Source of the DNA: a virus
DNA: 64,000 bases
Virus record (IMG/VR): IMGVR_UViG_3300029513_000230
Coordinates: 1-64,000 of that record
Reading direction: 5' to 3' (one strand)
Under the pieces are notes generated by a model. That model saw only the letters and a program-made list of their open reading frames with translations, made no database searches and was not told the origin of the DNA. The position numbers and the translations under genes are program-made. Position 1 is the first letter of the stretch; each line of letters opens with the position of its first letter. Positions 43,030 to 61,847 of this stretch are shown piece after piece.

Positions 43030-43130
43030 ACGCCAAAAGAGCCATACCCCGCAGGATACGACTCCCGCCGGGTATGGCTCTTAGGCTCTAATTTCTTTTT
43101 TGTTATGTCCTACAAATATAGGGGATAAGG
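43030..43130 (-). promoter_or_regulatory. repeat family, copy A (TATATTTG box - AGAGCC-NN-AGAGCC - hairpin - T-run)
   Basis: Same ~90-nt architecture as copies at 61728-61816 and 51990-52075; partial similarity at 45118-45195. Confidence 0.55.
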
Positions 43131-43149
43131 ATCAATTGTCAAAACAAAT

Positions 43150-45108
43150 TCATGTAATTTTAGACAATATCAGCGAATAGGATGCCGTTTGGTATTTCCC
43201 TATCTTCTCCGTTATCTCGCTAACCCATCCCTCGTACGATCTCCCTGCGTACGAGAACGATAATTTGCCCCTGTAATTACCCGGGAACGGGGATAACCCC
43301 GGGGTCTCCAAGGACACCTTATCAATCCTAATCCTCCGGTCGTTAACCGGCAGGGATATAGGAAGGGTCTCCGATACGCCTCCTATCGATATTGAGGAGT
43401 TTCCGTCCGAGGCCGTGAAAGACAGGTAATCCGTGCATATCCCGAGCCTTTCCTTATTGACGAGAAGCATATTTCTCGGCGAGTAGGAGGCGTTAAAGAT
43501 AGTGTCGGGGAACAATACTCCCGTAACGGCATATATAGCTCCCCCATTCTCTTCTCTTACCAGAACTAACCTATCCCCATCTTTCCTAGCGTGGACAATA
43601 AATATGTCATTGTCGGAATCCGTATCCTTCGATTCCTCGTCACGCTCGTTAGCGAGAAACTCCAATCCGTAGCAATCTGCCCTATACGGGCTTATCAATG
43701 ACAATATGTTGTCCTTTATGTCCAATCCCGTGCTGAAACTGCTCTTGAAGTGAAACTCGTCACGCCCGTTTATCTCATCATAGTCCTGCTTGTCGAATCC
43801 AATTTCAACCCCAGAGTATATCAACGACTCATCCACGGATAGCTCCATATTGCTCACGTGATCCAATTCTTTCGTCTCATTGACGAAGAAATCATTCATA
43901 TGCCGGAAACGCACGCTATTATCCAGTATCTCGTAATCATACCCAAGCAACGCCTTGGCGAAATCACAGAACTTGGAGAAGGACGTATGGACCTTCGCGT
44001 CCTTTATTCCTCTCACGCTCTCAGCGGCCATCATCCAAGGTATAGGCATGGAACCGGAGACGATATCGCCGGACAATGACACGCCCATCCTTGATAATAA
44101 CGAGGATAATAGTTTTTTAGGGGAGAAAGCATCTATATTTACGGGCTTGTTGCGAGCCGAGTAATCGATATATAAATCGTAGTCCCTTGATATCTTGATG
44201 ATCTCATCGATATCCTCCCCTATAGACGTTACGCACAATATGTAGGCGATCAGCCTGTCACCATCCCTCATAGCGTAGGAAAGGCTCTCATCTACAGATG
44301 TAACGCCCGCTGACGATCCATCTTTGCTTAGCAGTATGGCTTTGTCGGACTTCAGCTTATTGTCGGCAGACATATGCCTTATGTGCAACGATGTCACCGC
44401 CGTGGTCAGCAAGTCTACGACCATTCGTATCCTTAGATTTATCTCGATCTTATCGACAAGGCACAAGGCGAAATAACCTGTCTTCCCGGCGTTATCGTAC
44501 GGGATATCCATACCTACGTCGTAGACCTCCATCACTCCCTTTACAGGCGTGCTTATCTCCCCGTAAGCCAAAGGTAATAACGTCTCCCTGCTCTGAAGCC
44601 TTAAAGCCATGAACCGATCGTAATCGGGCATCAACTCGTTCTCGAAGTTTGGGGTTATATACATCGTTGACTTGTTAAGTAGCTTTATCCTGTCATAATA
44701 CAATGTATCCTCCTTTAACTCCGACACCGGGATATCGTATACCTGCGACTTATTGGCGTTGATGATGGACGCTACGCTATCGTCAATGGCGTTTATGGAT
44801 ATCGTATACCCGTCGCTCTGGTACGTGGAGAAATCGAGCTTGCAACGAAACTTCTCGTTATACCCCCAGCTATCGTTCAACACGCCTATCACCAATATGG
44901 CCGAGGCTTTCGTATAATTGGATAGGTACTCGGCCTCAAGAAGGTCGTATGCCCCCTTCACGAACTCGAACTTGTTGGAGAAGGATCGAACGACACCGCC
45001 AATATCCTTCCTCTTAGCCGATATCTCCACGTCCTCCCAGTTCTTTAGGTGATCGGTCACGTCATACCTCTTCCCCCCTATCAATAATACCGCTTTTATC
45101 ATACGCAT
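43150..45108 (-). CDS. distal tail/baseplate-like structural protein (652 aa)
   Basis: Large ORF in the tail module. Confidence 0.45.
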   Translation of the reverse strand: MRMIKAVLLIGGKRYDVTDHLKNWEDVEISAKRKDIGGVVRSFSNKFEFVKGAYDLLEAEYLSNYTKASAILVIGVLNDSWGYNEKFRCKLDFSTYQSDGYTISINAIDDSVASIINANKSQVYDIPVSELKEDTLYYDRIKLLNKSTMYITPNFENELMPDYDRFMALRLQSRETLLPLAYGEISTPVKGVMEVYDVGMDIPYDNAGKTGYFALCLVDKIEINLRIRMVVDLLTTAVTSLHIRHMSADNKLKSDKAILLSKDGSSAGVTSVDESLSYAMRDGDRLIAYILCVTSIGEDIDEIIKISRDYDLYIDYSARNKPVNIDAFSPKKLLSSLLSRMGVSLSGDIVSGSMPIPWMMAAESVRGIKDAKVHTSFSKFCDFAKALLGYDYEILDNSVRFRHMNDFFVNETKELDHVSNMELSVDESLIYSGVEIGFDKQDYDEINGRDEFHFKSSFSTGLDIKDNILSLISPYRADCYGLEFLANERDEESKDTDSDNDIFIVHARKDGDRLVLVREENGGAIYAVTGVLFPDTIFNASYSPRNMLLVNKERLGICTDYLSFTASDGNSSISIGGVSETLPISLPVNDRRIRIDKVSLETPGLSPFPGNYRGKLSFSYAGRSYEGWVSEITEKIGKYQTASYSLILSKIT

Positions 45109-45117
45109 ATAAATAAG

Positions 45118-45195
45118 AAGAGCCGTCCGGGGACAAATACGTCTCCGGTACGGCTCTTTGGCTCTGTCACAAAGATAATGACTATTAAGATAATA
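45118..45195 (-). promoter_or_regulatory. repeat family, copy D (variant)
   Basis: AGAGCC-AA-AGAGCC + hairpin GAGCCGTACCGGAGACG...CCGGACGGCTC + T-rich tail; TATCTTTG box immediately upstream. Confidence 0.4.
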
Positions 45196-45199
45196 TCAA

Positions 45200-45502
45200 C
45201 TAATCAATCGTATTATCTTTCTCGATCACCCGCAAGAAATCCCTCACGCATGACACGGCCCTCATCTTGTCCATGATATACCCGTCCTCGTAATTACCCT
45301 CGCAACTCAAATTGATAAGCGTATCTATCATATCGTCCATATCCTTAGAGAACAGGCAAGTGGACATACTCTTTATCTCTCTCATCATTTCCGGGGTTAT
45401 GGTCAAGTTCCCTATTACCAACTCATGCGCATGATCAACCTTGATCTCGTTACCGTCGGCTCTCACGACGATGCTTTTAATCTCGTTCTCTTTCATATTC
45501 AA
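45200..45502 (-). CDS. hypothetical protein
   Basis: ORF only. Confidence 0.4.
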   Translation of the reverse strand: MNMKENEIKSIVVRADGNEIKVDHAHELVIGNLTITPEMMREIKSMSTCLFSKDMDDMIDTLINLSCEGNYEDGYIMDKMRAVSCVRDFLRVIEKDNTID

Positions 45503-45633
45503 TCAATCTTTTAATATTTCACAATTATTTTCAAGTCACAAAATGTTAAAGTCTTGGGTATACGTACTAAATCCGTACATCTAATCTATTTAGGTCACAT
45601 TTTATACTTGGCATAGTCAAGGAAAGGAATCTT

Positions 45634-46479
45634 TCAAACAATCCTAGTAATCTTACCGTCACCGGGATCACCTCCCAGAAGATGGTTTATGTAAGCCAGC
45701 CCCTTCTGGGTTACGAGTACCTTCGTCACGACAAAGCCCGGATGATTCTCCCTCTCAATAAACTTCTCGGTCATCTCGAAATACCCGGCGTTGATGTACT
45801 TCTGTTTCGGCTCGTTCCGGTTGGAGAAGAACACGCCTATTTCTTTAAGCTTCTTGAAGAGGATGTTTCTTCCGAACCCTAATTTCAATATCTTCGCAGC
45901 CATACCGATATCAACCTTGTCCGAGGTCTCGAAAGCCTTGTCCGCAAAATCGGCCTTGGGCTGGAGCTTGCTGATAGTTCTATTTGCCTGTTCTATCTGC
46001 TCTTGCTGCTTGGCCGCCAACATCAACGCCTCCGAGAAAGATTGTGGAATCTGGAAACCTCCAGTCTTGATCTGCTCTTCCATACGGTTGAAAGCCTCAA
46101 TATAATCTAACTTGAATTGAAGGGCCTTATCACCAGTAAAGCCCATGGTCAAAAGAGTAAATCCATCACGATTCATAACATACATTATATTACTTTTCCC
46201 ACTACTATCAACGTAAGTAGTTGAAACAAAGTACTGAGCCGAAATATCGGCTGAGTCAATTATTCTTTTTATCGACTCTATCACATGCTTATGCTGTTTA
46301 TTAAATTTCTCAGCGACCAATAAGCTGTTCGTGAAAATGCGATTATTATCGCCTTTAAATACTAATTCTTTCATGATCTTAATATATTTGTTATTGAAAA
46401 TTCCATCAAACCCTCCGGCGATATTACCGGAGGGGCATCTACTTCCGATCCTCTCCCCATCGTTCGAGTTATCCCGCAA
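45634..46479 (-). CDS. Rha-family phage regulatory protein with C-terminal antirepressor-like domain (start likely Met ~46377)
   Basis: ...ELVFKGDNNRIFTNSLLVAEKFNKQHKHVIESI... Rha N-terminal signature. Confidence 0.6.
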   Translation of the reverse strand: MRDNSNDGERIGSRCPSGNIAGGFDGIFNNKYIKIMKELVFKGDNNRIFTNSLLVAEKFNKQHKHVIESIKRIIDSADISAQYFVSTTYVDSSGKSNIMYVMNRDGFTLLTMGFTGDKALQFKLDYIEAFNRMEEQIKTGGFQIPQSFSEALMLAAKQQEQIEQANRTISKLQPKADFADKAFETSDKVDIGMAAKILKLGFGRNILFKKLKEIGVFFSNRNEPKQKYINAGYFEMTEKFIERENHPGFVVTKVLVTQKGLAYINHLLGGDPGDGKITRIV

Positions 46480-46756
46480 GCCTTACGCAAGTCATGTCGC
46501 TTATCACGCTCATGAACCGATCGTAGGTCTTTTTATTCCATTCCTTATGATCCGGCATCCAGTCATTGAATATCTCCATGTAGACCACCTCGTGAGACCT
46601 GTCTTGTACGGTGACGCATAAACCGCCCGTCTCCGGCATAACGCCTACATTTATATGTACCGGTTTCCTTCCGATCATACACTCCAACGCAATCCTTTGT
46701 ACGTTCTTCAATACTTCTATCGTTTCCATATTCCTTATATTATTAATGTATATCAA
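46469..46756 (-). CDS. hypothetical protein
   Basis: ORF only. Confidence 0.35.
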   Translation of the reverse strand: MIYINNIRNMETIEVLKNVQRIALECMIGRKPVHINVGVMPETGGLCVTVQDRSHEVVYMEIFNDWMPDHKEWNKKTYDRFMSVISDMTCVRLAG

Positions 46757-46947
46757 TCACCCGAATAAACCCTGTTAGCATAAAGGCTAGCCATACCGAC
46801 ATGAGTAAGTCTTACAGCATGGGATCTTTCCGCAAGTTGCACCATCGCTTTCGCCGATCCCCAAGCCTGTTTAAGGCACGAGCCGAATGTACGTCCGTAT
46901 ATTGCTTCCTTCATGATCTCACTCTTGTTGTATTTCTGTGTTGCCAT
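46753..46947 (-). CDS. hypothetical protein
   Basis: ORF only. Confidence 0.35.
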   Translation of the reverse strand: MATQKYNKSEIMKEAIYGRTFGSCLKQAWGSAKAMVQLAERSHAVRLTHVGMASLYANRVYSGD

Positions 46948-47149
46948 TGTACTGTTGTTTTATTTTGATGATGCAAATGTATAGTTAAACCTAACGAAAC
47001 ACAAGTAAATCGTTAGGTTTAACTAATCTTTAACACAAGTCCAATGTTTAATTAAAATATATCAAAAACTATATTTCGAATAGTTATTCCTAATCATATA
47101 TCATTTTTATATTTATCTTTGCCGTTAGTAATAACTAAACATTCATCTG

Positions 47150-47428
47150 ATGGACATAAAATCAATTATTAAGGCTCAAGGTTATACTATCGAACGTATA
47201 GCTGCGGAATGGGAAAGCAAAAACGGTAAGCCTATAACACGAGGTGCTTTATCTCAATCAATTAATAAAAACCCAACGGTGGAAACACTTCAAAAGATAG
47301 CAAATGTGATAGGGTGTAAAGTCGGGGATTTCTTTTCTGATGAAATCAATAGTAGCAAAACGATCATTTGCCCCCATTGTCAAAAATCAATATCTGTTGA
47401 AGTGGATGTTAAGATTAAGATGGAATGA
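47150..47428 (+). CDS. HTH_XRE transcriptional regulator with C-terminal Cys pair
   Basis: ...IERIAAEWESKNGKPITRGALSQSIN... HTH. Confidence 0.6.
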   Translation: MDIKSIIKAQGYTIERIAAEWESKNGKPITRGALSQSINKNPTVETLQKIANVIGCKVGDFFSDEINSSKTIICPHCQKSISVEVDVKIKME

Positions 47429-47520
47429 TATAACCTGCAATCCTCTAAATAAAAATCATGAAAGTTTGTTTTATGCATACAATACATTACCTTTGCGATA
47501 CAATATAATACATAAGTAAT

Positions 47521-47763
47521 ATGGAAGCAGTAATAAGAAAGCAAACCTCGTTCCGTTTACGTGAAGACTTGTTGCAAGTCTTGCAGGAACAAGCCAAGAA
47601 AGCGAATAGGAGTTTGAATAATTTTGTAGAGAGCACCTTGATGGACGCTGTATACTCCGAACCGAATACGGAAACGATCGCGGCTATAAGGGAAGCACAC
47701 ACGACCAAGAATAAAGAAACGTTCGACAGCGTGGATAGTTTGATGGAGGAATTAATGAAGTGA
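47521..47763 (+). CDS. RHH antitoxin (DinJ/RelB-like)
   Basis: SFRLREDLLQVLQEQAKKANRSLNNFV ribbon-helix-helix pattern; stop overlaps the GTG start of the toxin remnant. Confidence 0.55.
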   Translation: MEAVIRKQTSFRLREDLLQVLQEQAKKANRSLNNFVESTLMDAVYSEPNTETIAAIREAHTTKNKETFDSVDSLMEELMK

Positions 47764-48037
47764 AAAAGAAATTACACCCAACAAGCCAGTTTAAGAAAGA
47801 TTTCAAACGTATTCAGAAATTCCCAAAAAAATCGCAGCTTTTGAATATATCGCAAATCTGCTTATAAATGACCATCCGATTCCACAAGAATACAAACCTC
47901 ACATGTTGAAAGGTGAGTATAAAGGTTGTATGGAATGCCATATAGAAGGGGATTTTCTTCTTATTTGGATTGACGGAGAAATAATCGACTTGCTTAGAAT
48001 TGGTAGTCATTCCGAGTTGTTCGGGAAAAAGAGGTAG
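47757..48037 (+). pseudogene. YafQ/RelE-family toxin gene disrupted by a frameshift in an A7 tract
   Basis: Frame 1 gives ...FKKDFKRIQKFPKK then stop. The +1 frame after the A7 run (47826-47832) gives ...LLINDHPIPQEYKPHMLKGEYKGCMECHIEGDFLLIWIDGEIIDLLRIGSHSELFG, the YafQ C-terminal consensus. Confidence 0.6.
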
Positions 48038-48161
48038 ACAAGGTTTGTACTACTTAAATTAAGAAATATGTTATCGAACATGTAATTTTCTCCTATACCA
48101 TTTGCTTTTGTTAACACTATTATCTACTTTTGCCCCGTCATTAATTAAACTAAATCAAGTC

Positions 48162-49166
48162 ATGAGGAAAATGCTATTTTTTGTCCTAGCGGCAATATTT
48201 TTGCTAGGATGTGAGAAAGAATTTGTCGATATCCCACCTAAAGCTAGTATAACTGAAGACAATGAGCCTATTTTAACTTTCTTGGAGGAAGAAGGACTAA
48301 GGCCATCCCAATCTGATAAAATAAGCGATATATTGGGAGATATAGAAGAGGAAGGCTATAGGCTGTTATTAGGCAGGAGGTCTGATAATGCTTGGTTTTC
48401 AAAATTAGATCCATCAGGCAATGAAATTTGTTGTTTTGAATTACCTCCTTTAAAAAAATGGAAATATTCTCATTATAATATGAACTCTGTTCTATTTAAA
48501 TCCAAAGACCATATTTTTGTTAGAGGATGGTATTCCAATCAAAATGATCCATCTATAATGGGTTATGATTATGATGAGATAGTATCTATTGTTGATTTTA
48601 ACAAAGGTGTCGCAACAGACCATCTGGATATTGTTTCAAACGATACGCAAAACAATGACTATAGATATACACTCATGGAGTCTAATTATAGGACTCTAGT
48701 ACTTAGATCGACTTCGTCTTTTAAGAATCAACATCTATACGTAGTTGGCTCCGAAGGTAAAATATTATATCATAGAGACTATGATAATAAGATCGAAGGG
48801 CCTTATTTAGAAAATGGGGTCATATTTATTGATGACGAAATAGCATGTCCAATTATAGAGAAAGGTATAAACATGTATTCTTCTATAGCCAAATTACCAA
48901 TATTTAATTTAAGGACATGGACATTGATAAAAAAATTAGATTCTGAAAATGGATTGATCCCAAAAGGGGATAGATACAACGAGCCTAATATTTCATATAA
49001 GACAGACACGGTATATCTTGAGAAAAACAATATAATATACGCATATGGAGAATACAAAAACAAAAAAGATCCAATATCAGACACCAATATTGAGACATTG
49101 CTTGATAAATATTATTATGAAATAAATATTGGATCTTATAATGTTGAAGGCCCATTCAAGTATTAA
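48162..49166 (+). CDS. lipoprotein (accessory 'moron' gene)
   Basis: Signal peptide + lipobox LLGCEKE; ATG at 48162 preceded by the same TAAATCAAGTCATGA leader as the next gene. Confidence 0.55.
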   Translation: MRKMLFFVLAAIFLLGCEKEFVDIPPKASITEDNEPILTFLEEEGLRPSQSDKISDILGDIEEEGYRLLLGRRSDNAWFSKLDPSGNEICCFELPPLKKWKYSHYNMNSVLFKSKDHIFVRGWYSNQNDPSIMGYDYDEIVSIVDFNKGVATDHLDIVSNDTQNNDYRYTLMESNYRTLVLRSTSSFKNQHLYVVGSEGKILYHRDYDNKIEGPYLENGVIFIDDEIACPIIEKGINMYSSIAKLPIFNLRTWTLIKKLDSENGLIPKGDRYNEPNISYKTDTVYLEKNNIIYAYGEYKNKKDPISDTNIETLLDKYYYEINIGSYNVEGPFKY

Positions 49167-49191
49167 AACAATTCAAATCATAAATCAAGTC

Positions 49192-50652
49192 ATGAAAAAA
49201 GTTTTACCTATTTTTCTTCTATTAATGCTATTTTGTTCTTGCAGTAATAAAGACGATTATACCATAACTTCTATTTCTATTGATAAAACAAAGCTAGAAT
49301 TGAAGATTGGTGAAAGTTATGATTTCCAAATGTCCCATTTCCCTTCGGAGGCTCCTTCTCCCCGATATAAATGGGTTACATCTAAATATTTTCCGATAAA
49401 TGGCCCCGAAGATGGCTATGAAATAGCATCTATTGATCAAAACGGAACTATAAAAGCTTTAAAAGAAGGTGTTACAATTGTAAGCGTAGAGACAATTGAT
49501 GTTTTTGATCCCGAAAAAGGTTATCCTTTTTTTCAGTCATGCAAAGTAACCATAAAACCCATAGTAGGTGAATCCATAACATTATCCAAGACAGATCTTG
49601 ATATGAAGCCCGGAGAAACGGCTTCGTTGACGTATACCATATCACCGGATAACGCCACAAGTAAAGATGTCATATGGAAAACCAGTGACCCTAAAGTAGC
49701 TTCGATATCCTATGGTGGCTTCACATCCAATGCCGAGATTACAGCAAAAGGCCAAGGTGAGGCAACAATCACCGTAAGCCTAAAGGATAACCCCAAGGTG
49801 TCTGCTACTTGCAAGGTCAAGGTAGGAGCGGCAAAGCTTGAAAGTATCAGCTTTGAGGAAAAAGAAAAGACAATCATGCAAGGTGAATCAACCAAGTTAA
49901 ATCTTGTGTTTACGCCTTCTTATGCTACTAATAAAAACGTACAATGGACATCCTCTAATAAGGATATAGCGGTCGTTGATAAGGAAGGTAACGTTACTGG
50001 AGTTCATTTCGGGGAATGTACGATAACCGCCAAAGCCGAGGATGGAGGATTTGAGACGGCTTGTAAGGTCATAGTAAAGCCTATTCCGGTAGAAAACATA
50101 TCTTTTCCCTCACGTTACTATGATATCGAGATAGGAGGGGAAAAACAATTAATTGTAAATTTTACTCCGGAGAATGCGGGAAACCGTAATCTTACATGGT
50201 CTTCCTCTAATCCTATAGCCGTGTCTATTGACAAGACCGGAAAGGTGAAAGGGAATACGTCTGGAAGTTCAACAATCACAGCTACCAGCGAAGATGGTGG
50301 GCATAAGGCATCCGTAGAAATATATGTAGTTGAAATAGATCGTTTGATGAACGTGTACTTCCCTTCTTCATCCGTCGTTATTCTCAATGGATATTACACG
50401 GGAAGTATATCATGCGCCATCCGAAATAATAGTTCTCATGCCGTAAACCTAAGCAAATTCTACGTCGTTGAATCTAATACCTATAAGACTGTATTAGAGA
50501 CTACGGATATGTCTATATTAGGAGAATTAAAGCCCGGAGAAACAAAAACGCTTAATGCTAGATTAAACTCGGTGTATGAGCCAATATTCCGTTGGGAGTT
50601 TGAATATAATGGAAATTCATATTCTACGTGGACTAAATATGGAGATAAATAA
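49192..50652 (+). CDS. surface lipoprotein with tandem bacterial Ig-like (Big_2) domains
   Basis: Lipobox LFCSCSN; 4-5 repeats of ~85-aa Big_2-like units (e.g. ...GEATITVSLKDNPKVSATCKVKV). Confidence 0.65.
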   Translation: MKKVLPIFLLLMLFCSCSNKDDYTITSISIDKTKLELKIGESYDFQMSHFPSEAPSPRYKWVTSKYFPINGPEDGYEIASIDQNGTIKALKEGVTIVSVETIDVFDPEKGYPFFQSCKVTIKPIVGESITLSKTDLDMKPGETASLTYTISPDNATSKDVIWKTSDPKVASISYGGFTSNAEITAKGQGEATITVSLKDNPKVSATCKVKVGAAKLESISFEEKEKTIMQGESTKLNLVFTPSYATNKNVQWTSSNKDIAVVDKEGNVTGVHFGECTITAKAEDGGFETACKVIVKPIPVENISFPSRYYDIEIGGEKQLIVNFTPENAGNRNLTWSSSNPIAVSIDKTGKVKGNTSGSSTITATSEDGGHKASVEIYVVEIDRLMNVYFPSSSVVILNGYYTGSISCAIRNNSSHAVNLSKFYVVESNTYKTVLETTDMSILGELKPGETKTLNARLNSVYEPIFRWEFEYNGNSYSTWTKYGDK

Positions 50653-50674
50653 GCCTTGTAAGTAATACTCTAAA

Positions 50675-50711
50675 ATCCCCTCCACCCAAAAGGCTCTGGA
50701 GGGGATTTTTT
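50675..50711 (+). terminator. rho-independent terminator
   Basis: CCCCTCCA-n9-TGGAGGGG followed by T6. Confidence 0.6.
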
Positions 50712-50987
50712 ATCCCCCTTGCTGTCTCACGACATGAGGGAGGATTATGAAAACTAAACCAAATCATGTCTATATTTTGCAAACATGGGGTCAGCCTAAT
50801 TTTCGGCACACCCCTTTCTCTCTGATCATATTGGAGATAATATTGTAGATATACTCAATAAAACGATGCTTCTCCTGTAGAATCCTCATAAGTATCTATA
50901 ACAAAGGCTAAACGCATTTTTGCGTTCAGTTCTTCATCAGATGAATTTAGTGAATTTTCGATTGAACTTCATTATCTGTTTATGTTT

Positions 50988-51785
50988 TTAACAAGCCTCT
51001 TTATTTCCTAAGAACTTGTTCACGAAGTAAACCTGCCCTTTTCCGGTGACCTTCGGCGTGATAGTAGTATGTAACACCCCGTTATTACCAGATCTTACGC
51101 CTTTCTTCAACTCGAACAAGCCTTGCTCCACGTATTGCTGGTTAGGGATATTGTATCTCTCACCATGCTTTCCGAGATATCCATTGTCACGCATCCATGC
51201 GAACAATCTTTTCTCCCCGATGGAATACCCGTTTTGAGCGATCAGCTTGGCGAGTTCACCGATCAGGCAGGAACTGTTCGCCGATTGAACGGCGTTAGTA
51301 AAAGCAACGGCGGGAGCGGCCTCGGTTACTTTCCGTTCGGCCTCGATACGCTTTCGTTGTTCCTCTTTAAGGTTTGTGGCCAATTGGATCAAGAAATCGG
51401 GCGAGGTCAAGGCTTTCTCCAGTGTATCGTTTGTCATATACGCTCCATGTTTGCGGATGGAAGGGAGAACCTCTCCGCATACCCAGTCTTGGAATGGTTC
51501 GGCTTGCGGTTTGTCGGATCGCATGATTACCTTGTAAAGGTTCTGCTCATTGATAAAAGTTAACGTAACTTCTTGCTCTGTTGTGATACCATATTGATTA
51601 GTAGTCTTTGAGACCCCGTCGGTCAAAACTACCCCCTCTGGTTTTAATCTTGATTTGCAGTCTCTTGGATTTTTTATTTCCAAAACCCGGCAAACGTCCA
51701 CAAGGCAAAATAAAGGATTCTCACTTGTCCCGGCTACTCTCACTTCACCGAAACGATCGTTCTCAAAAATTTTAATTGCTTCCAT
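50988..51785 (-). CDS. Bro-N/KilA-C-type phage antirepressor
   Basis: N-terminal ...IFENDRFGEVRVAGTSENPLFCLVDVCRVLEI..., a Bro-N-like domain. Confidence 0.6.
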   Translation of the reverse strand: MEAIKIFENDRFGEVRVAGTSENPLFCLVDVCRVLEIKNPRDCKSRLKPEGVVLTDGVSKTTNQYGITTEQEVTLTFINEQNLYKVIMRSDKPQAEPFQDWVCGEVLPSIRKHGAYMTNDTLEKALTSPDFLIQLATNLKEEQRKRIEAERKVTEAAPAVAFTNAVQSANSSCLIGELAKLIAQNGYSIGEKRLFAWMRDNGYLGKHGERYNIPNQQYVEQGLFELKKGVRSGNNGVLHTTITPKVTGKGQVYFVNKFLGNKEAC

Positions 51786-51989
51786 ATCTTAAAATTTTAA
51801 TTGTTCAAAATATTTTCTCCCGCAATTTTAGCCATAAGATCAAAACGACTTTGTTATTTTGATTACTTCGGCACCTCTTAATGAAAAAGCCTCCCCGACA
51901 CGAGCCACAACACATCGTATCAAGGAGGCTGTTAGCGACCGCTGTCGCCCAAAATCTTCCTAGCCTGTCGTGGTAGGCTGACCAGTAAA

Positions 51990-52075
51990 AACAAAAAGAG
52001 CCACACCCCATAGACGTGACTCTATCGGGTATGGCTCTAAGGCTCTACTGTCTTCTTGTATGTCCAGCAAATATA
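51990..52075 (-). promoter_or_regulatory. repeat family, copy C
   Basis: TATATTTG ... AGAGCC-TT-AGAGCC-ATACCC ... GGGGTGTGGCTC-TTTTTGTTTTT. Confidence 0.5.
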
Positions 52076-52107
52076 ACTAGAAAGAATAAGAAAAGCAAGT
52101 TTTACGC

Positions 52108-55100
52108 TCAATTCATCCTTGATCTCTTGTAATTCTCGAAATCGATGCTCTTACTACTCTTGGATATGGTTTTAGATAGCTTGCCTATCTCCTTTTTTAT
52201 ATCATTATTAGCCCTTATTATCCCCTCGGCGTCGAAATTATTGACGATCTGAACCGGCTCGCCTCTCTTGTTGTGGGTGATCCAATACATGTTATCCACG
52301 AAGCGACTGAGGAAAGCCGGATCATTGAGATCCGGAACGACCTCGGCTCCCGCCGGCAATGACAGCAAGGTGGGCTTATCCGGGGTAATGTACGCTTTAT
52401 CTCCTACCAATACCGCCTCGCTACGGCCTCCATCGCCAACGATAGCCAAACCGCCGGGGTGATTGTCGGTACCATGGGCGTATTTGGGGATGGGTTGGGC
52501 TATGATCGTGGCGAGTTGCACGGCTCCGGTAGCCGCTATCATTGCTGCAAAGATAGCTCCAGCGATAGGTCCCGTTTCTTTGTAAGCTACCATTATCGCC
52601 CGTGCCGTGGCCGCAATAGTCTGAGCTATATCTATAGACTTTTGGAACTTGGCCTGTCTAGTCTGCAACTCAGCTTTTTTCTTCTCCAGTTCCTTGTTCT
52701 TGCGGCTGGTCTCTTCCTCCGCCGCACGCTTGCGGGCCTCGGCCTCCTCTGTCGTTATTATATCCTTCTCGGCAAGAGCGTCTATAGTCTCAACCTTAGC
52801 GTCATACTCATCTTGGTTAGCCTCTATTTCAGCATCTACATTATCTATTTGACGTTGAAATAATGAATTACCGATTGATATGATAGCAGATATAGATTCT
52901 TGTATCAAGCGCTTTTTAGCCTGTTCTACTTTTTTTCGCTCCTCTTCCTCTCGTTTGGCATCCTCTATGATTTTATCGCTGGTCTCTTTCGATAACTGAA
53001 CACGGAGGCGAGCGATCTCCTTCTCTTTCTCTAGCCTCTCATCGCCTTCAAACAAATAAAGATTTGATTCAAGTATACTTAATTGACTTTGTAATGACTC
53101 CATAGCATACTGATGCTCCAGATCCGATTTCTGTTTCTCATACTCTTTTTTCTTGATAATCCCTTGCTCATATTGTTTAGTCAAGGCATTAAGCTCTTCG
53201 TTTATCTCTATCTGTCTTTGAGAAAGGAGTATCTCGTTCTGAGACTGCTCCGTAGACATAAGACGTTTTCCGTAATCATTGTATAGAGTCTCTATTTGCT
53301 TTAGATACTTTTCCTCTATCAACGCCCTGTCTTGGCCTGTTTTGTCCGCCTCTCTTAATTCTTTATCCTTTTGTAGTTGTAATATATCCAAGCGAGCGTC
53401 AAGCTCTTGCAAACTTCCCTTTTCTGCAATCGCAAGACGATTTTGAGCCTCCTCGTTAGCCCTTTGCTCCGAGATCTTACGGTCGAATTCCGCCAATTTC
53501 TTGCTTCTCTCAGCCTCTATAGCCTCAATTTGCTCATTAACCCTTACGCCTTTCGTCTTTACGTCGTCGATACGCTTTTGGAAAGATTGCTCCAAGAGAA
53601 GACGGTCTTTCTTATACCCCTCATCCATCACATTAAGACGGGCCTCCTGAATATTCCGTTCGGCCTCCATCTCTAATTTCTCCCTACGCTTGGCCTCTCG
53701 TTCTATCTGCTCCTGCTGTCGTTTAAGTTTCTCCTCGTTAGAGGATTCTCTTATACCTGCGCTCTCTAATTCACTCCTTGCGGCTTCCATCTGCTTTTTG
53801 TTATAGTTGAAATAAGCGAATCCTGCCTCATCAAGAGCATCAGCTTGATCATTCAAAGATTTAACATCCACTTCTATAGCCTTCGCATTCTCCTCAGCAA
53901 GTTCTTTCACTGATTTTACGCCAAATCTAGTATCTTGCATAACAGCCGTAGCCGCATATTGCCCTTTTTCTCTTGCCTCATCTGCTTTTTTTTGTAGATT
54001 TTCGGCTTCAATCCTTTTTTGTAAAGCCTCAGCATATTTTTCTTGAGCTAATTTTTGCGCAGCTGCCGCTTGTGCCCTTAATGACATAGCATTAATAAAG
54101 GCCTCCGTATTATCTACTAGCAGATTCTCTGCGTCATTAACATCCGTAACTGACACATCTAATTTCTTAAATTCAGAGGCATTGTCGATGATAAATTGCT
54201 TCTGCTTATTGAGATTACCTCCTAAATTATTCCATTCAGCTTGTAAGTTGCGTAATGTTACAAGATTCTCCCCATATGATGATGTCGAGTTCTTTAAAGC
54301 CTTGGCATAATCCCCGGTGGATGAATTCAAGTCTCTCTGGGCTTCCGAAGCGGCCTTAGCCGAGCTAGAGGATGACAATAAGTTTTTACCCCACTCAAAG
54401 ATATCCTTACCATATACGGTAAGTAGAGTTATACCAACCGACAACAAGGTATTCCAAGACAAAGCGGACTTAGCTATCTGCTTCCACACAGGAACACCTT
54501 TCAGTCCCTCCTCCCGTAAGGCGGCGTTCTCCTTCCTTATCCGAGATATTTGGTCTACCAATATAGGGATATTGTTAGAGATAGCGAGAAAGCCGGTCTG
54601 TAGAGATACCGAGAATGCGGGAAACTCACGGGTTAATTGATTGATTGCGTTTCCCATTCCATCCCATGTGGAGACATAATTACCCACGTTTCTCTGATGC
54701 TGTCCCAGACTTTTATCAACAGATTTTACCTGAGTGTCCAAAGCCGCTATATTCTTTTGCAACTCTACTCCTAACTTGCTGTTAGCGGCTTCCGTGGAAA
54801 GCATCCGATACGCCTTTCTCAGCCTCTCCAATTGCAACGATTGCTCTTGATAACTATCGTTGGCCGAGTTGATCATTTTTGTCTCATTCGTAAGAATGTT
54901 CAACAGCTCTCTCAAGGATTCTCGATGAAGCAATTCAGACCTTACCAGATCCTGCCTCTTTTGCACGGCATCTTTAGTTGAGATAGCCCCGCTTTTCTCC
55001 ATTTTATTCAATTGGCTTTTCTCCTTGGATAGTTGGGCCAATATCGTCCTTTCTTGAGCGACCCTGCGTATATTCTCCTCCCTAGATCCCAATGTCTGGT

Positions 55101-55530
55101 CAATGAGTCCCTTCAATTCCTGACTTATGACAACCTCTTGTTGCTTGGCTTTCATGTTCTCCGAGATAGCGTTTGATTCCTTGGCTATGGAAGAGGATGA
55201 TTGATCTAAACTATTTTGAACTTTCCCAGCTGCTTCCGCATATCTCTTGTTAACCTCTATCAGCTCATCAATCTTTCTCTTGTACTGGTCATTGGTCTTA
55301 TTGAGAGTGTCAATCGTGCTTTTAAGCGCTGATACATTTTTCTTGTACTCCTCGATCTTGGCGTTCAACTCTGACAAGCTTGAGGGATTTATCGTCAACC
55401 CTTTCCCTATCTCTTTTACCAACCCGATATAGACATTCTGCGTATCCGCTAATTTCCTATCCAGACGCTCCAGTTGATCAAACGCCTCTTTCCCTACTAT
55501 ATCAGTGATCTTAGTCTCGTTTCCCGCCAT
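52108..55530 (-). CDS. tail tape measure protein (1140 aa)
   Basis: Long coiled-coil E/K/Q-rich protein downstream of tail assembly chaperone-like genes. Confidence 0.7.
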   Translation of the reverse strand: MAGNETKITDIVGKEAFDQLERLDRKLADTQNVYIGLVKEIGKGLTINPSSLSELNAKIEEYKKNVSALKSTIDTLNKTNDQYKRKIDELIEVNKRYAEAAGKVQNSLDQSSSSIAKESNAISENMKAKQQEVVISQELKGLIDQTLGSREENIRRVAQERTILAQLSKEKSQLNKMEKSGAISTKDAVQKRQDLVRSELLHRESLRELLNILTNETKMINSANDSYQEQSLQLERLRKAYRMLSTEAANSKLGVELQKNIAALDTQVKSVDKSLGQHQRNVGNYVSTWDGMGNAINQLTREFPAFSVSLQTGFLAISNNIPILVDQISRIRKENAALREEGLKGVPVWKQIAKSALSWNTLLSVGITLLTVYGKDIFEWGKNLLSSSSSAKAASEAQRDLNSSTGDYAKALKNSTSSYGENLVTLRNLQAEWNNLGGNLNKQKQFIIDNASEFKKLDVSVTDVNDAENLLVDNTEAFINAMSLRAQAAAAQKLAQEKYAEALQKRIEAENLQKKADEAREKGQYAATAVMQDTRFGVKSVKELAEENAKAIEVDVKSLNDQADALDEAGFAYFNYNKKQMEAARSELESAGIRESSNEEKLKRQQEQIEREAKRREKLEMEAERNIQEARLNVMDEGYKKDRLLLEQSFQKRIDDVKTKGVRVNEQIEAIEAERSKKLAEFDRKISEQRANEEAQNRLAIAEKGSLQELDARLDILQLQKDKELREADKTGQDRALIEEKYLKQIETLYNDYGKRLMSTEQSQNEILLSQRQIEINEELNALTKQYEQGIIKKKEYEKQKSDLEHQYAMESLQSQLSILESNLYLFEGDERLEKEKEIARLRVQLSKETSDKIIEDAKREEEERKKVEQAKKRLIQESISAIISIGNSLFQRQIDNVDAEIEANQDEYDAKVETIDALAEKDIITTEEAEARKRAAEEETSRKNKELEKKKAELQTRQAKFQKSIDIAQTIAATARAIMVAYKETGPIAGAIFAAMIAATGAVQLATIIAQPIPKYAHGTDNHPGGLAIVGDGGRSEAVLVGDKAYITPDKPTLLSLPAGAEVVPDLNDPAFLSRFVDNMYWITHNKRGEPVQIVNNFDAEGIIRANNDIKKEIGKLSKTISKSSKSIDFENYKRSRMN

Positions 55531-56107: not shown

Positions 56108-56112
56108 ACTAT

Positions 56113-56858: not shown

Positions 56859-57005
56859 GGTTCCTCTCCATTATATCATAAGCGTCACCTAATATCCTCC
56901 TTCGATCCGCCATTCCCCGGTCAAGGAAGAAAGATCCCTCGTGAGCCTTCACGAAAACCTTCCTTCCCATACCGAGACAAGCCTCATCATTGAACGATAC
57001 CCCGT

Positions 57006-57854: not shown

Positions 57855-57856
57855 AA

Positions 57857-58369: not shown

Positions 58370-58866
58370 ATATTCATCTCATTTATATGGGTCAATATAT
58401 TCCTGTCAATATCCATGTCCTCCTTGAAAGACTCCCTTACGCGATCCGATATCCCGATGTTGATATCCACCATATTATTCCAAGCTTGGGTCATCATCCG
58501 TGAGGTATGCGCCAATATCCGCCTCACGTCCACGTCATCGGACGTGGAGGATACGGATATTAGCGTCTCGTTTCTCTGGTAATGAAAATAGACATACATA
58601 GCCATGGGAGACCTATCCGATCTCAATATCCCTAGGATATAATCAAACATGTCGTTTCCCTTCCTGCCATTATCGGCGTAATCGACGAATGAGTCATAAT
58701 ATCCTCCCATGAGCGAGACGAGGTACTCTTCCCCGTAGGTCTCGATATACCATCCCACGTTCTCCGATATGGCTCTGGAAGCCTCATTGGAGAATCCCCC
58801 GTCCTCCGGTATCACGAGTCCCTGTATCCTAAGGTCTCCCTTGAAGTACGCATTGTCTATTATCAT
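58366..58866 (-). CDS. head-tail connector/completion protein
   Basis: Position only. Confidence 0.4.
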   Translation of the reverse strand: MIIDNAYFKGDLRIQGLVIPEDGGFSNEASRAISENVGWYIETYGEEYLVSLMGGYYDSFVDYADNGRKGNDMFDYILGILRSDRSPMAMYVYFHYQRNETLISVSSTSDDVDVRRILAHTSRMMTQAWNNMVDINIGISDRVRESFKEDMDIDRNILTHINEMNI

Positions 58867-58868
58867 CG

Positions 58869-59138
58869 CTATTTATCTTTATCAAGTGACATTTTCGAGT
58901 CCCCGAAGACGGATGTCTTGGTATCCGTGTCCGGGATGCTCTTTCTTGTCCCAACCGGGGTCTTTGAGGATATATCGATCATGCCAAGCTCCTTTCGTAT
59001 GGAATTCTCCTGAATGACCTTGTCGACCTCCATCTCCTCACCCGTTATAATTATAGAAACCCTCATGTCATTATGTATTAAGAGGATTTCTTGATAGCGG
59101 TCAATACGTCGGATAACTTGCCATAGGCGAACGCCCAC
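58869..59138 (-). CDS. small head-associated protein
   Basis: Position only. Confidence 0.35.
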   Translation of the reverse strand: MGVRLWQVIRRIDRYQEILLIHNDMRVSIIITGEEMEVDKVIQENSIRKELGMIDISSKTPVGTRKSIPDTDTKTSVFGDSKMSLDKDK

Positions 59139-60748
59139 GGGTTGTATACCGGCATGATAACCTCCTCGTCCACGATCACCGCCGTCTGGTTTTTCAATCG
59201 GCTCTCGATATCATCGGCGAACTCGATATTGATAGAGGTATAATCCACCAAGGAGGCCCCGTTAACCATATCCCCGACGAAATAATACCCCGGCATGATA
59301 CAAGTGGTCTCGACAACGGGTCTTCCGGCCACGTACTTCACGCCGTTCACCAACGTCACGAGATTCAAATCCCGCCCCGACGTGTCCTTCAAGGTCTCGA
59401 TCTCAAACAAGGTGGATGGGTTCATGGCGATCATATTCGGGGTATACTCAGCGTACGTCATGACACCGAAGATAGCCTTGACAGCGTCCCCTAGGTTCGG
59501 GGATGCGACGGTGTTGAAGAAATTATTCTTAACCTCGAAGGTAGCGGCGGTGAATACGCCGGAAGCCGTGAAAGCCACCTCTACCATGATCTCCCGATCG
59601 TTCATCTTATGGATATCGAAAGTTCCGTTCAGGTCCGTGAATGTGGTTACGCCCTCGATCTTGATCTTCTGGCCGTCAACGATCTTGTCCTGCGGGTTGG
59701 TAAACTCCACGATAGTGGCTTTTCCGCCATTGTAGCTTCTCGCTCCCTTGATAGATCCGGCCTCTCCGCTGACAACCGCGTCGGTTATGATATCGGATAC
59801 GCATTTAACGCCATCGTATTTGGTGATACCCTTCAGGTTATCCCCCGTCCCATCGCCGAACATGATCTGGAAATCCTCGGCCATCCTCACCCAAGAGGAT
59901 AAGCGATTGATCAACCATGAGCGGACATATACCCTAGACTTGAGCAATCTCTTGGACAAATAAAGGAAGGTACCGACACGCTTAACCTCCGAGCTCTCCT
60001 CCTTTAACTTGAAGGATGATTGGGATAACCGCCCGTTCTCGGACACGAAAGTGGCGTTACGATCCAAGTCGTAGATCAACTGCCATGTCAACATCGGGAA
60101 GGCGGGATCACCCTGATCGACGCTCATGAGATTACGGAAATTGATCTTTTTCTCGCTTACCTGCGTAACGACCCTGTTTTGCTGCTGACTGATCAAGATA
60201 TTGCCCGTATAACTATCCGTCATACTGACCACGTCCTTCAAATCCAAATGGAAATTCCCGGAGGACTTCGTCTTACCATCTACATATTGCTTGAATTTCT
60301 CAGAGTCAAGGAACTCATTGATACTTTTCTCAAGAGGGCTATCCCCCCCCAAGGTGATGCCACGCCCCTTCATTTGCTCAATCTCCTTGCCCATGGACTT
60401 GATGATATCACGAATCTCTGTGACTTCCTTATTGTTATTACCGGAACCTAGGGATTTAAGCTTCTCGCTAATCCCGGACATCGTCTCCTCGTACTCCTTC
60501 CTGTCTATGACATTAGCTCCGTAATCCTCCAGACACTTGTTGACCATCTTCTCGATAGTCCCAAGCGTTTGTTTCTCCTCGTCACTCAACTCACTCTCCT
60601 TCTTGGCGAAACCGGAGAAGGACAATACCGGCGCAACCGCCAAGGCATAGGCCGGATCGCCCACGCATGCGATAACGGCAAAAACCACCAAGGTCAACGC
60701 CATGATAGCGAGACCTCCTAAATTCTCATAAAAACCTTTCTTCAACAT
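59078..60748 (-). CDS. major capsid protein (HK97-like, with N-terminal scaffold/delta-like region)
   Basis: 556 aa; N-terminal coiled-coil region then capsid-fold-sized domain; directly downstream of the prohead protease. Confidence 0.6.
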   Translation of the reverse strand: MLKKGFYENLGGLAIMALTLVVFAVIACVGDPAYALAVAPVLSFSGFAKKESELSDEEKQTLGTIEKMVNKCLEDYGANVIDRKEYEETMSGISEKLKSLGSGNNNKEVTEIRDIIKSMGKEIEQMKGRGITLGGDSPLEKSINEFLDSEKFKQYVDGKTKSSGNFHLDLKDVVSMTDSYTGNILISQQQNRVVTQVSEKKINFRNLMSVDQGDPAFPMLTWQLIYDLDRNATFVSENGRLSQSSFKLKEESSEVKRVGTFLYLSKRLLKSRVYVRSWLINRLSSWVRMAEDFQIMFGDGTGDNLKGITKYDGVKCVSDIITDAVVSGEAGSIKGARSYNGGKATIVEFTNPQDKIVDGQKIKIEGVTTFTDLNGTFDIHKMNDREIMVEVAFTASGVFTAATFEVKNNFFNTVASPNLGDAVKAIFGVMTYAEYTPNMIAMNPSTLFEIETLKDTSGRDLNLVTLVNGVKYVAGRPVVETTCIMPGYYFVGDMVNGASLVDYTSINIEFADDIESRLKNQTAVIVDEEVIMPVYNPWAFAYGKLSDVLTAIKKSS

Positions 60749-60759
60749 AAATAAATTAA

Positions 60760-61740
60760 TTAATTGTTATTAATAAGATCACCTAGAGACCCTAAAGTGC
60801 ATCTAGCGGCTTTATGTTTCTCTATCTGAGTGGAGTCTTCCGGCTCAGATATAAGGGTGTTGCTTCTATATATTCTGGAATAACATTTAGGACAGCGGAC
60901 ATAAGAGGCGAAATCATCAACGGATTTCTTGGAGTTGATTATCTCCAAGATACGGTCTTGCAACTCCGGCTTGATCTTTTCCATCTCCTGATATACCACA
61001 TCCTCCGTTATCCATCGTGAATAGTCACCGACGGCATCGATCACTTGGCTCTCCAACGTGTGTTCCGGTACTGACCCATAATCGAAAGCCAGCCCGCAAT
61101 GAGGGCACTGTACTATATTAGATCCGATCAACGCTTTCTCTACGATAGATATGTTAGCCTCAAGAGCCTTGAGCTTATCTCCGCTATATCTCTTATTTAA
61201 AGCGTCACGCATCATATTTATATGATCTCTCAAGTCACTACCCCTCAATTCCTTTATATCCATCAAGAATGTCTGAGGATTAGCACCCCAATGGGTCAGC
61301 GTGCTATACTCGCCCAAGAACCACTCCTTAACGATAGCCGGGTTATTGGAATCCCGCTTCACGGCCCTGACGCCCACGGAATGCTCCAAGGTCTTGCCAT
61401 GATCCCTGTATAGCTTGTAATCCTCCAGCGTCTCTACGCCTATCTGCTTCTTTAGATTGATCTGCCCGGTCATGACCAGATTGCCATCCTCCTCCACTCC
61501 CTCTATAGGGCAGCCAAGAAGCTTGGTCTTGTCATGGTTGAGAAACCACTTGCACCTGTTGAAATTCTCTTGGAGCGTCTTGGAGAAAGAACCGGGAGAC
61601 GATATATCGCCGTCGCTGTCCTTTATCCCGATACCATTAACGGCCACCTTGACTATTCCTTTCTCATCCACGTCCGTGGACTTGGTCTTAAATAATATGC
61701 TTCTATACGGTTCCATGTCGGTATAAATAAAAAGAGCCAT
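60760..61740 (-). CDS. prohead serine protease (HK97 family) with C-terminal Cys4 zinc-ribbon extension
   Basis: ...AVNGIGIKDSDGDISSPGSF... prohead-protease motif; CPHCG...CPKCYSRI zinc ribbon. Confidence 0.6.
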   Translation of the reverse strand: MALFIYTDMEPYRSILFKTKSTDVDEKGIVKVAVNGIGIKDSDGDISSPGSFSKTLQENFNRCKWFLNHDKTKLLGCPIEGVEEDGNLVMTGQINLKKQIGVETLEDYKLYRDHGKTLEHSVGVRAVKRDSNNPAIVKEWFLGEYSTLTHWGANPQTFLMDIKELRGSDLRDHINMMRDALNKRYSGDKLKALEANISIVEKALIGSNIVQCPHCGLAFDYGSVPEHTLESQVIDAVGDYSRWITEDVVYQEMEKIKPELQDRILEIINSKKSVDDFASYVRCPKCYSRIYRSNTLISEPEDSTQIEKHKAARCTLGSLGDLINNN

Positions 61741-61816
61741 ACCCCGCAGGATACGACTCCCGCCGGGTATGGCTCTCAGGCTCTAATTTCTTTTTTGTTA
61801 TGTCCTACAAATATAG
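61728..61816 (-). promoter_or_regulatory. repeat family, copy B
   Basis: Near-identical to copy A: TATATTTG-TAGGACATAACAAAAAAGAAATT-AGAGCC-TG-AGAGCC-ATACCCGGCGGGAGTCGTATCCTGCGGGGTATGGCTC-TTTTT. Confidence 0.55.
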
Positions 61817-61847
61817 GGTTAATATATTAAAAAGCAAAACTATAGAA

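Follow-up and report, generated by a model that had tools for sequence, protein, structure and literature searches.

A repeated promoter-hairpin cassette with a duplicated AGAGCC hexamer in the late arm of a Parabacteroides prophage: a candidate transcription attenuator

To our knowledge, the timing of late-gene expression in temperate phages of gut Bacteroidales is essentially unknown. One locus that raises the question is the late arm of IMG/VR virus record IMGVR_UViG_3300029513_000230, of which we analyzed positions 1 to 64,000 (64,000 nucleotides (nt), hereafter called the window). The window contains a temperate phage, lambdoid in style and inserted in a Parabacteroides-type genome, and between several of its late genes lies a conserved intergenic repeat in which a promoter-like sequence, two AGAGCC hexamers and a long hairpin follow one another. 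Why would a promoter be placed so that it fires into a terminator-shaped hairpin just ahead of virion genes? Here we define the repeat as a single cassette, trace it through related phages, and weigh the mechanisms that could account for it.

The window holds four cassettes, copies A to D (Table 1), all of them intergenic, on the minus strand and in gene sense. They share a common order of parts, namely a –33 TTG, a spacer of 19–20 bp, a –7 box, a leader, hexamer 1, two variable nucleotides, hexamer 2, the hairpin, and a U-rich tail. An initial annotation had grouped the promoter box, AGAGCC-NN-AGAGCC and hairpin into one architecture, and this was borne out in all four copies; the Bacteroides-type –7 box noted there is likewise present in each, with the –33 TTG at 19–20 bp in addition. 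The –7 box reads TATATTTG ahead of the hexamer pair in A, B and C and TATCTTTG in D, and the leader between this box and hexamer 1 measures 21–24 nt in the former three and 4 nt in the latter. The hexamer pair AGAGCCNNAGAGCC occurs four times in the window, always on the minus strand, against 0.19 occurrences expected, and none of 100 shuffled sequences reached four. A covariance model derived from 22 variants, when applied unfiltered to every window position, gave exactly four sense-strand matches (58–88 bits), the next having an E value of about 1. The count of five proposed initially is therefore too high, as the supposed hairpin-only copy at 52040-52090 overlaps copy C.

Several other particulars of the initial annotation could be refined. 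Copies A and B are indeed nearly identical, the figures being 99% over 89 nt (43035-43123 versus 61730-61818, with a single differing position) rather than ~95% over ~85 nt. The hairpin does begin at the second AGAGCC, with a stem of 17–19 bp and not 10–12 bp. A T run of five to nine residues had been ascribed to copies A–D; B and C have good U tracts (T5), whereas that of A is short (UUUU, then GGCG) and that of D is interrupted (UUCUUAUUU). Finally, the start codon lies 10–18 nt past the U-rich tail in A, B and D, in line with the claim that each copy sits just upstream of a late gene, while copy C is separated from the start of the Bro gene (51785) by ~210 nt.

To characterize the hairpin, we folded each copy and aligned related sequences. 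Folding energies predicted for the four window hairpins lie between –29 and –38 kcal/mol (z –5 to –8), lower than those of any shuffled sequence. The stem consists of 12 bp, a 1×1 mismatch and then 5–6 bp, its base being formed by hexamer 2 paired to GGCUCU; the upper stem of copy C differs from those of the other copies. A model-guided alignment of 84 matches comprised 55 distinct sequences, and hairpins ranged from 36 to 45 nt with at least 38 distinct hairpin sequences. Among the 55, pairing is maintained in 94.7% of cells, compared to 30–54% when the 3′ partners are slid by 1–3 columns. Six of the 17 pairs change on both sides (58 cells), a level of covariation reached in none of 500 shuffles. 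Substitutions accumulate freely in the upper stem and compensate one another, whereas both hexamers, the GGCUCU and the U tract are fixed. The lowest six base pairs and the unpaired hexamer 1 are equally invariant (54–55 of 55 sequences), rare exceptions to the hexamer being AGAGAC in variant L062 and AGAACC in L287. Since hexamer 1 is unpaired, its invariance cannot be explained by pairing. G-U pairs outnumber A-C mismatches by 61 to 21, a comparison in which misalignment of D-type sequences inflates the mismatches somewhat, and this bias favors a sense-strand RNA over a DNA cruciform as the predicted functional form.

The relation between the hexamers and the hairpin was the same throughout. 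In every copy the stem opens with the 6 nt of hexamer 2, such that the hexamer-hairpin register is fixed while the promoter register varies. When hexamer 2 alone was blocked in constrained folding, hexamer 1 took its place at the base of the stem. When both hexamers were blocked, only an upper helix of 12–13 bp was left, lying 6 nt off the U tract.

We then asked how widely the cassette occurs. An exact-pattern scan of IMG/VR yielded at least 114 stretches, to which later scans added; the contexts described here are among the matches listed. We counted at least 212 instances in at least 99 distinct sequence contexts, drawn from gut phage contigs and two Parabacteroides genomes. All 99 contexts have promoter, hexamers, hairpin and U tract followed by a gene start. 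The unit is conserved in related phages, a lack of which had been named initially as grounds for refutation. The –7 box TAnnTTTG was present in 99/99, at 3–7 nt upstream of hexamer 1 in 27 contexts and at 20–25 nt in the other 72, and the –33 TTG was found at a spacer of 19–20 bp in 96/99. At least four T residues (mostly 6–7) occupy the 8 nt past the stem in every context, and in most of them the downstream open reading frame (ORF) starts 8–27 nt past the stem. Each phage carries 4–6 copies. The cassette extends to phages whose structural proteins are only 22–70% identical to those of the window, at non-syntenic sites, other junctions including that between TerL and portal and those before homologues of the tape-measure chaperone and of gene 42129. 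Divergent phages that bear the cassette are represented by IMG/VR contigs 3300045988_144448, _148019 and _169796 and by P. hominis NSJ-79 contig NZ_JACOOJ010000009.1. One phage (L004) has an extra cassette after an inserted 1087-aa gene that possesses an ordinary terminator of its own.

The cassette was not found as a host repeat. When 185,579 species-representative genomes (one per species) were scanned, the full pattern was confined to prophage regions of Parabacteroides hominis and P. distasonis; three other matches were unrelated, lacked the promoter and look like chance. The cassette is a lineage-specific phage element and not a host repetitive extragenic palindromic (REP) sequence, a possibility that the initial annotation had named as one that would count against it. 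Apart from RT-17 elsewhere, Rfam 15 gave no family over the window at gathering thresholds, and a permissive search (E up to 10) over copies A, D and B gave only noise. A literal search for the cassette sequence in the papers covered found no match. In ~2.3 Mb of related phage DNA, no hexamer other than AGAGCC showed the layout of repeat, hairpin and T tail. A scan for the leader by itself (TATATTTGNNGGACATA) returned mostly chance matches and two further cassette variants, and in no case a leader paired with a different hairpin.

Do the flanking parts fit known signals? In Bacteroides, promoters of the primary sigma factor carry TAnnTTTG at –7 and TTTG or TTG near –33, ~19–21 bp apart, and the same work describes Rho-independent terminators along with ‘intra-operonic’ short RNAs that run from a transcription start site to a terminator (PMC7366714). 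The predicted promoters of all four window copies fit the Bacteroidota primary-sigma consensus. Between 27000 and 64000 there are five well-formed minus-strand promoters; four are those of cassettes A–D, and the fifth (46981) heads an accessory Rha/ANT operon. Downstream of the cassettes lie the block of protease, capsid and tail genes, the Bro gene, the gene for the 652-aa virion protein, and the distal block of tail genes and a diversity-generating retroelement. On the transcribed strand, the sequence predicts the anatomy of an intrinsic terminator, with a stable hairpin and then a U tract that is weak in A and D, 8–27 nt before most downstream start codons. This arrangement implies that transcripts from the cassettes must cross a terminator-shaped hairpin before reaching the late genes, either through regulated read-through or because the terminator is leaky.

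We tentatively favor, with somewhat less than even confidence, a mechanism in which a constitutive promoter is gated by an attenuator and a trans-acting factor binds both hexamers in the nascent RNA, blocking closure of the stem base. Each copy would be a self-contained gated promoter acting at the RNA level. In the lysogen, host RNA polymerase would start at the cassette promoters and stop at the hairpin, producing RNAs of 55–80 nt, and the hairpins would also halt read-through from upstream units, leaving head, tail and downstream genes silent. The initial suggestion of a repeated operon terminator may to this extent be partly true. During lytic growth a factor, most likely a phage protein, would bind the two single-stranded hexamers as they emerge. 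With both occupied, the stem base would stay open; termination would fail, and the strong promoter would drive the downstream block. A detached upper helix lying 6 nt from the U tract should not terminate. The constrained folds lost the stem base under a double block alone, and a factor occupying the two hexamers would accordingly open the gate. The predicted anatomy is that of attenuation, in that the recognition motif overlaps the 5′ arm of the terminator and binding and terminator formation would be mutually exclusive. Antitermination would act locally at each site, through occlusion of the terminator 5′ arm, as with HutP or LicT/SacY. We prefer such a gate to a processive device of the lambda Q kind for two reasons. 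The hexamers keep a constant position relative to the terminator but show a bimodal distance from the promoter, and every terminator comes with a hexamer pair, a provision that would be superfluous in a processive system. Thus the general idea of a promoter-proximal terminator with regulated read-through, put forward initially, remains the best available, whereas the accompanying analogy to lambda PR′/qut/tR′ is unsupported by the spacing data and by the lack of a Q homologue in the early ORFs scanned (see below). A further, more doubtful proposal is that these gates constitute an undescribed late switch of Bacteroidota phages, in which a phage- or Parabacteroides-specific factor reads the AGAGCC pair and opens several identical gates, the cassette being portable between modules of mosaic phages.

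Several observations weigh against the attenuator mechanism. We infer both termination and read-through at the cassettes from the sequence alone. The weak U tracts of A (UUUUGGCG) and D suggest that some copies may leak without any factor. Invariance of the three hexamers could reflect three-way pairing, with either 5′ hexamer able to pair with GGCUCU, rather than recognition by a protein. In relatives with a 75%-identical TerS, head genes abut or overlap and no cassette was found at the orthologous junctions; virion operons of this type can therefore do without the cassette. Furthermore, no hairpin of this kind accompanies the first late promoter, which in relatives lies upstream of TerS. Finally, searches of ~40 early ORFs with Pfam and PHROGs brought up no candidate RNA-binding or antitermination protein.

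The last point deserves elaboration. Within those early ORFs, many of which, such as 8937-9341, 12276-12755, 20266-20913, 23004-23420, 23614-24039 and 26254-26826, are orphans, we detected no member of the Q, NusG-like, sigma or other known antiterminator families, no HutP, CAT/PRD, ANTAR, PyrR or TRAP domain, and none of the classical late regulators (Q, N, late sigma factors, activators). The only Q-family signal was a 13-residue zinc-ribbon match in the protein encoded by 22406-23002. The corresponding ORF, 22361-23002, had been proposed as a late regulator, and its zinc-ribbon spacing recalls that of lambda Q; we rejected this candidate on the basis of its predicted fold. An AlphaFold2 model of 22406-23002 (plus strand), with a predicted local distance difference test (pLDDT) score of 96.7 that rests on a deeper alignment from an exhaustive search, consists of two domains resembling a beta sliding clamp with an inserted CxxCxGxG zinc ribbon. 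The best matches of the model in the PDB are DnaN sliding clamps, and no sequence similarity to the solved Q structures there was found. The family has 862 cluster representatives of ~200–230 aa. As modeled, the protein is possibly a phage replication clamp.

Other explanations must be considered alongside the attenuator. The cassettes may need no dedicated regulator at all, each combining a strong promoter and a leaky terminator in a fixed ratio, to insulate units and set stoichiometry, with timing coming from elsewhere (e.g. repression of the cassette promoters, or genome copy number). Such a cassette would leave a 5′ stem-loop or an RNase III-type site, and a U/A-rich unstructured start region, on the mRNA. 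The uneven U tracts, of which those of B and C are strong and those of A and D weak, agree with this proposal, as do the failure to find a regulator in the ORFs scanned and the occurrence of cassettes after inserted accessory genes, where they resemble restart promoters. In addition, stems of ~19 bp are long for a terminator and near the minimal substrate of RNase III. However, the proposal leaves the invariance of the unpaired hexamer 1 and of the stem-base sequence unexplained, ungated consensus promoters would express structural genes in lysogens, and an insulating terminator is defeated by a promoter placed upstream of it. We consider it rather unlikely. We are more skeptical of a DNA-binding antiterminator of the lambda Q type, which would bind the AGAGCC direct repeat, load onto a paused polymerase and confer processive resistance to terminators. 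This possibility is favored by the precedent of Q21 and Q82, whose binding elements are direct repeats within the initially transcribed region, and by the presence of a promoter for every hexamer pair. The placement of a promoter directly before a terminator also matches lambda PR′-tR′ with its short lysogen RNA (PMC7547250). However, a Q loading site would be expected at a constant distance from the promoter and its pause site, and the bimodal promoter-hexamer distance (3–7 or 20–25 nt), set against a fixed hexamer-hairpin register, makes Q less likely. The leaders, moreover, lack a –7-like pause element, and the Q-family match does not go beyond the zinc ribbon of the clamp-like protein. A processive system would have no need of a recognition repeat at every terminator, nor of a restart after inserted genes with terminators of their own, as in L004.

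Less probable again is that the cassettes are genes for sibling small RNAs (55–80 nt) that act in trans, their position before late genes being secondary. Their parts would make a canonical gene of this kind (promoter, single-stranded 5′ part, terminator hairpin, U tail); intergenic and intra-operonic small RNAs exist in Bacteroides (PMC7366714), and StxS, a short leader RNA of the lambda type, has a function in trans (PMC7547250). On the other hand, conservation of the single-stranded 5′ leader is poor, D-type copies lack it, and the window contains no complementary target beyond low-complexity 9-mers. Efficient terminators between portal and protease would also cut off essential genes unless read through, which leads back to attenuation. 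The chance is slimmest for a mobile or recombinogenic palindrome acting as DNA (related to REP elements and their associated RAYT transposases, to integron attC sites or to module boundaries), with the hexamers bound by a recombinase or repressor. This would fit a cassette far more conserved than the flanking genes, found at non-syntenic junctions and beside inserted cassettes, as well as the 99% identity of A and B within one genome, a deletion of 18.7 kb exactly between B and A in one contig, the inverted hairpin tops of some copies (L016 versus L017, L006 versus L042), and a second palindrome with a duplicated upstream hexamer at 47034-46984. The ORF upstream of D also has a weak IS200-like Y1 transposase match (E 0.08). 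Yet this match is insignificant and that ORF is absent next to the D-type copies of L012. All copies are gene-oriented and retain a conserved promoter and U tract, neither of which a recombination site needs, and the G-U over A-C bias points to one transcribed strand. There are just 4–6 copies per phage and none elsewhere in host genomes, and no pair of empty and filled sites was found. Recombination, which had been raised initially as an alternative, was seen only as a side effect in the one contig with the B-to-A deletion.

Two specific candidates for such a mobile element were tried and set aside. ORF 45200-45502 (100 aa, minus strand) was considered as an IS200-like transposase, given an HUH-like ‘DHAHEL’ motif and the Y1_Tnp match; it had no support from the PDB. 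A REP/RAYT or IS200-IS605 element was likewise rejected, as the pattern was confined to two Parabacteroides prophage regions in the species-genome scan and the transposase match was that same one.

On the favored reading, the cassette would be a form of promoter-proximal attenuation, undescribed for Bacteroidota phages, and it resembles several known systems in part. In lambda PR′-qut-tR′ (6S RNA; StxS in Stx phages), as is predicted here, transcription from a constitutive promoter meets a nearby intrinsic terminator ahead of the late genes; lysogens are expected to make a short terminated RNA, and virion genes depend on read-through. The differences are that lambda has one leader rather than 4–6 copies per genome; that the repeat of the cassette is locked to the terminator 5′ arm, not to a promoter or pause site; that the cassettes show no visible sigma-dependent pause element and the early ORFs scanned no detectable Q-family protein; and that the host is a member of the Bacteroidota, with –33/–7 promoters. 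HutP of Bacillus (which acts on tandem UAG repeats), LicT/SacY with its ribonucleic antiterminator (RAT), and EutV/ANTAR exemplify RNA-binding attenuation in which the terminator 5′ arm is occluded. By analogy, the cassette would resemble them in that its promoter is constitutive, its leader contains a terminator, and a short single-stranded motif, present as a repeat, extends into the 5′ half of the stem. It differs in its motif (AGAGCC twice, with an 8-nt period), in host phylum, and in serving late phage genes in several copies, and searches of the window with Pfam and PHROGs found no HutP, CAT/PRD or ANTAR homologue. A looser analogy can be drawn to the promoter/RNase III site pairs of T7 (e.g. 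phi1.3-R1.3, phi6.5-R6.5), where a repeated intergenic promoter and a conserved long hairpin likewise lie just before a gene in a same-strand array. The T7 hairpins have internal loops and no U tract, serve processing and not termination, and are transcribed by the phage's own polymerase; nothing there is like the duplicated hexamer. Short RNAs of Bacteroides that derive from 5′ untranslated regions or lie within operons also combine a start site, a TAnnTTTG promoter and a Rho-independent terminator in or between operon genes (PMC7366714). These differ in being chromosomal and single-copy and are not known to carry the cassette motif; the cassette itself has no Rfam match.

Whatever its mechanism, the cassette offers a handle on late-gene timing in the form of a 60-nt RNA motif with clear covariation and an invariant 6-nt recognition candidate. 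If the proposal is true, the phage would control its late genes through multiple local RNA attenuators and would use neither a late activator nor a sigma factor nor a processive antiterminator of the Q or N type. If the gate works, the predicted short RNAs of lysogens should show in existing Parabacteroides RNA-seq or Term-seq data, and RNA containing the hexamers (5′-AGAGCCUAAGAGCC-3′) could serve as bait for a new RNA-binding regulator. The cassette would also provide a compact regulated promoter part for engineering Bacteroidales and a marker of this phage lineage in metagenomes.

Table 1. Positions of the four cassettes, their parts, and other features of the window
Feature	Position	Strand	Context and values
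Copy A	43035-43143	minus	between 652-aa virion protein gene and 42129-43019; fold –38.4 kcal/mol, z –7.9; covariance-model match 82.6 bits
Copy A, promoter	–33 TTTG 43143-43140; –7 box 43120-43113	minus	
Copy A, RNA part	hexamer pair 43076-43089 (hexamer 1 43089-43084; TA; hexamer 2 43081-43076); hairpin 43081-43038; U run 43037-43035	minus	short U run
Copy B	61729-61838	minus	between portal and prohead protease; fold –38.2 kcal/mol, z –6.9; covariance-model match 87.6 bits
Copy B, promoter	–33 TTTG 61838-61835; –7 box 61815-61808	minus	19-nt spacer; –7 box TATATTTG; A-rich leader
Copy B, RNA part	hexamer pair 61771-61784 (hexamer 1 61784-61779; TG; hexamer 2 61776-61771); hairpin 61776-61733; U run 61732-61729	minus	hairpin 44 nt
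Copy C	51993-52098	minus	directly after tape measure, ~210 nt before Bro-N/ANT gene start (51785); fold –33.1 kcal/mol, z –5.0; covariance-model match 78 bits
Copy C, promoter	–33 TTG 52098-52096; –7 box 52075-52068	minus	20-nt spacer
Copy C, RNA part	hexamer pair 52033-52046 (hexamer 1 52046-52041; TT; hexamer 2 52038-52033); hairpin 52038-51997; tail from 51996	minus	hairpin 42 nt; tail U5-G-U5
Copy D (short-leader type)	45111-45199	minus	between 100-aa ORF 45200-45502 and 652-aa virion protein gene; fold –28.9 kcal/mol, z –5.6; covariance-model match 58.6 bits
Copy D, promoter	–33 TTG 45199-45197; –7 box 45177-45170	minus	–7 box TATCTTTG; 4 nt to hexamer 1
Copy D, RNA part	hexamer pair 45152-45165 (hexamer 1 45165-45160; AA; hexamer 2 45157-45152); hairpin 45157-45119; U tract 45118-45111	minus	hairpin 39 nt; interrupted U tract UCUUAUUU
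LexA-like repressor gene	6383-7180	minus	
Early operon	up to ~26.8 kb	rightward	Erf, NinB, RusA-like resolvases, methyltransferase, Ant-like gene
Terminase C-terminus	63312-63956		late arm
Portal	61848-63299		late arm
Prohead protease	60760-61716		ATG 61716
Major capsid	59078-60748		late arm
Tape measure	52108-55530		late arm
652-aa virion protein gene	43150-45108		ATG 45108
Gene 42129-43019	42129-43019		ATG 43019; next after 652-aa virion protein gene

The late arm is transcribed leftward, from beyond 64000 down to ~27 kb. Head-tail and tail genes lie between the major capsid and tape measure genes, and gene 42129-43019 is followed by the gene for an 1143-aa tail protein and then by the diversity-generating retroelement. 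Downstream of copy A, the search for lysis genes gave only a weak holin match (32046-32522, E 7e-4). The GenBank phage collection contained no close relative of the late arm, its only match being that of Rha/Ant to Bacteroides phage BF1-TP2.

Two features adjoin copy C. A small second hairpin lies just past it (51960-51990, minus strand) with the form AGCCU-N8-AGGCU, and its counterpart in L089 has GGUCU...GGACU, such that pairing is kept. In addition, an ORF of 68 aa (51805-52011) starts within the 3′ arm of the copy C hairpin.

Copies C and D bound an accessory island of ~7 kb (45200-51800) amid the tail genes. It encodes Bro-N/ANT (50988-51785), Rha/ANT (45634-46479), a helix-turn-helix protein (47150-47428), and, on the plus strand, further genes, among them one whose 507-aa product has three Big_2 domains (49129-50652), each with promoters of its own. 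The Rha/ANT operon is preceded by the second palindrome with a duplicated upstream hexamer mentioned above (46974-47034, minus strand), which reads GTTAAA-N5-GTTAAACCTAACG ... CGTTAGGTTTAAC, the palindrome itself spanning 47034-46984. Its loop holds the –33 region of the promoter TACATTTG (46981-46974), and it is probably an operator. The layout of two direct copies and one inverted copy resembles that of the AGAGCC element.

Two kinds of rearrangement were seen at the cassettes of related contigs. IMG/VR contig 3300045988_114106 (38.4 kb; L132 4449-4590, L162, L067) has portal, one cassette and then the homologue of 42129-43019. All head and tail genes, 18.7 kb, are lost exactly between B and A, which reflects either deletion by recombination or collapse of the assembly over the 89-bp repeat; near-identical copies of this length explain such deletion variants or collapses of these prophages. 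The hairpin top is inverted between otherwise identical copies, with the loop and adjacent bases reverse-complemented (L016 3448-3508 versus L017 4977-5037; L006 3025-3081 versus L042 7309-7365), the flip expected of palindromic DNA.

The diversity-generating retroelement is complete (32906-36753, minus strand). It comprises a reverse transcriptase gene (32906-34000, RVT_1), an Rfam RT-17 RNA (33955-34040), a template repeat (34082-34198), and a variable repeat (34644-34760) that forms the 3′ end of a 712-aa gene (34615-36753). All differences between the two repeats fall at adenines of the template repeat.

At the left end of the prophage (4778-6039, minus strand) is a transposase-like pair of ORFs (phrog_157). 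Circularly permuted related contigs (L149 6396-7691) have a 431-aa ORF between repressor and TerS, possibly an integrase, and the window prophage may carry an insertion sequence or another integration module at this end. In the early operon, ORF 10165-11274 (phrog_4433, function unknown) contains ~19–28 tandem copies of a 27-nt unit, encoding 9-aa repeats, at 10411-11164 (plus strand). A PAPS-reductase-like gene (24690-25481) is bracketed by two copies of a 39-nt hairpin (24363-24401 and 25477-25515, plus strand), which are 87% identical, have the form AGCCTTC...GAAGGCT and share common flanks, an arrangement like that of a moron with matching boundary hairpins.

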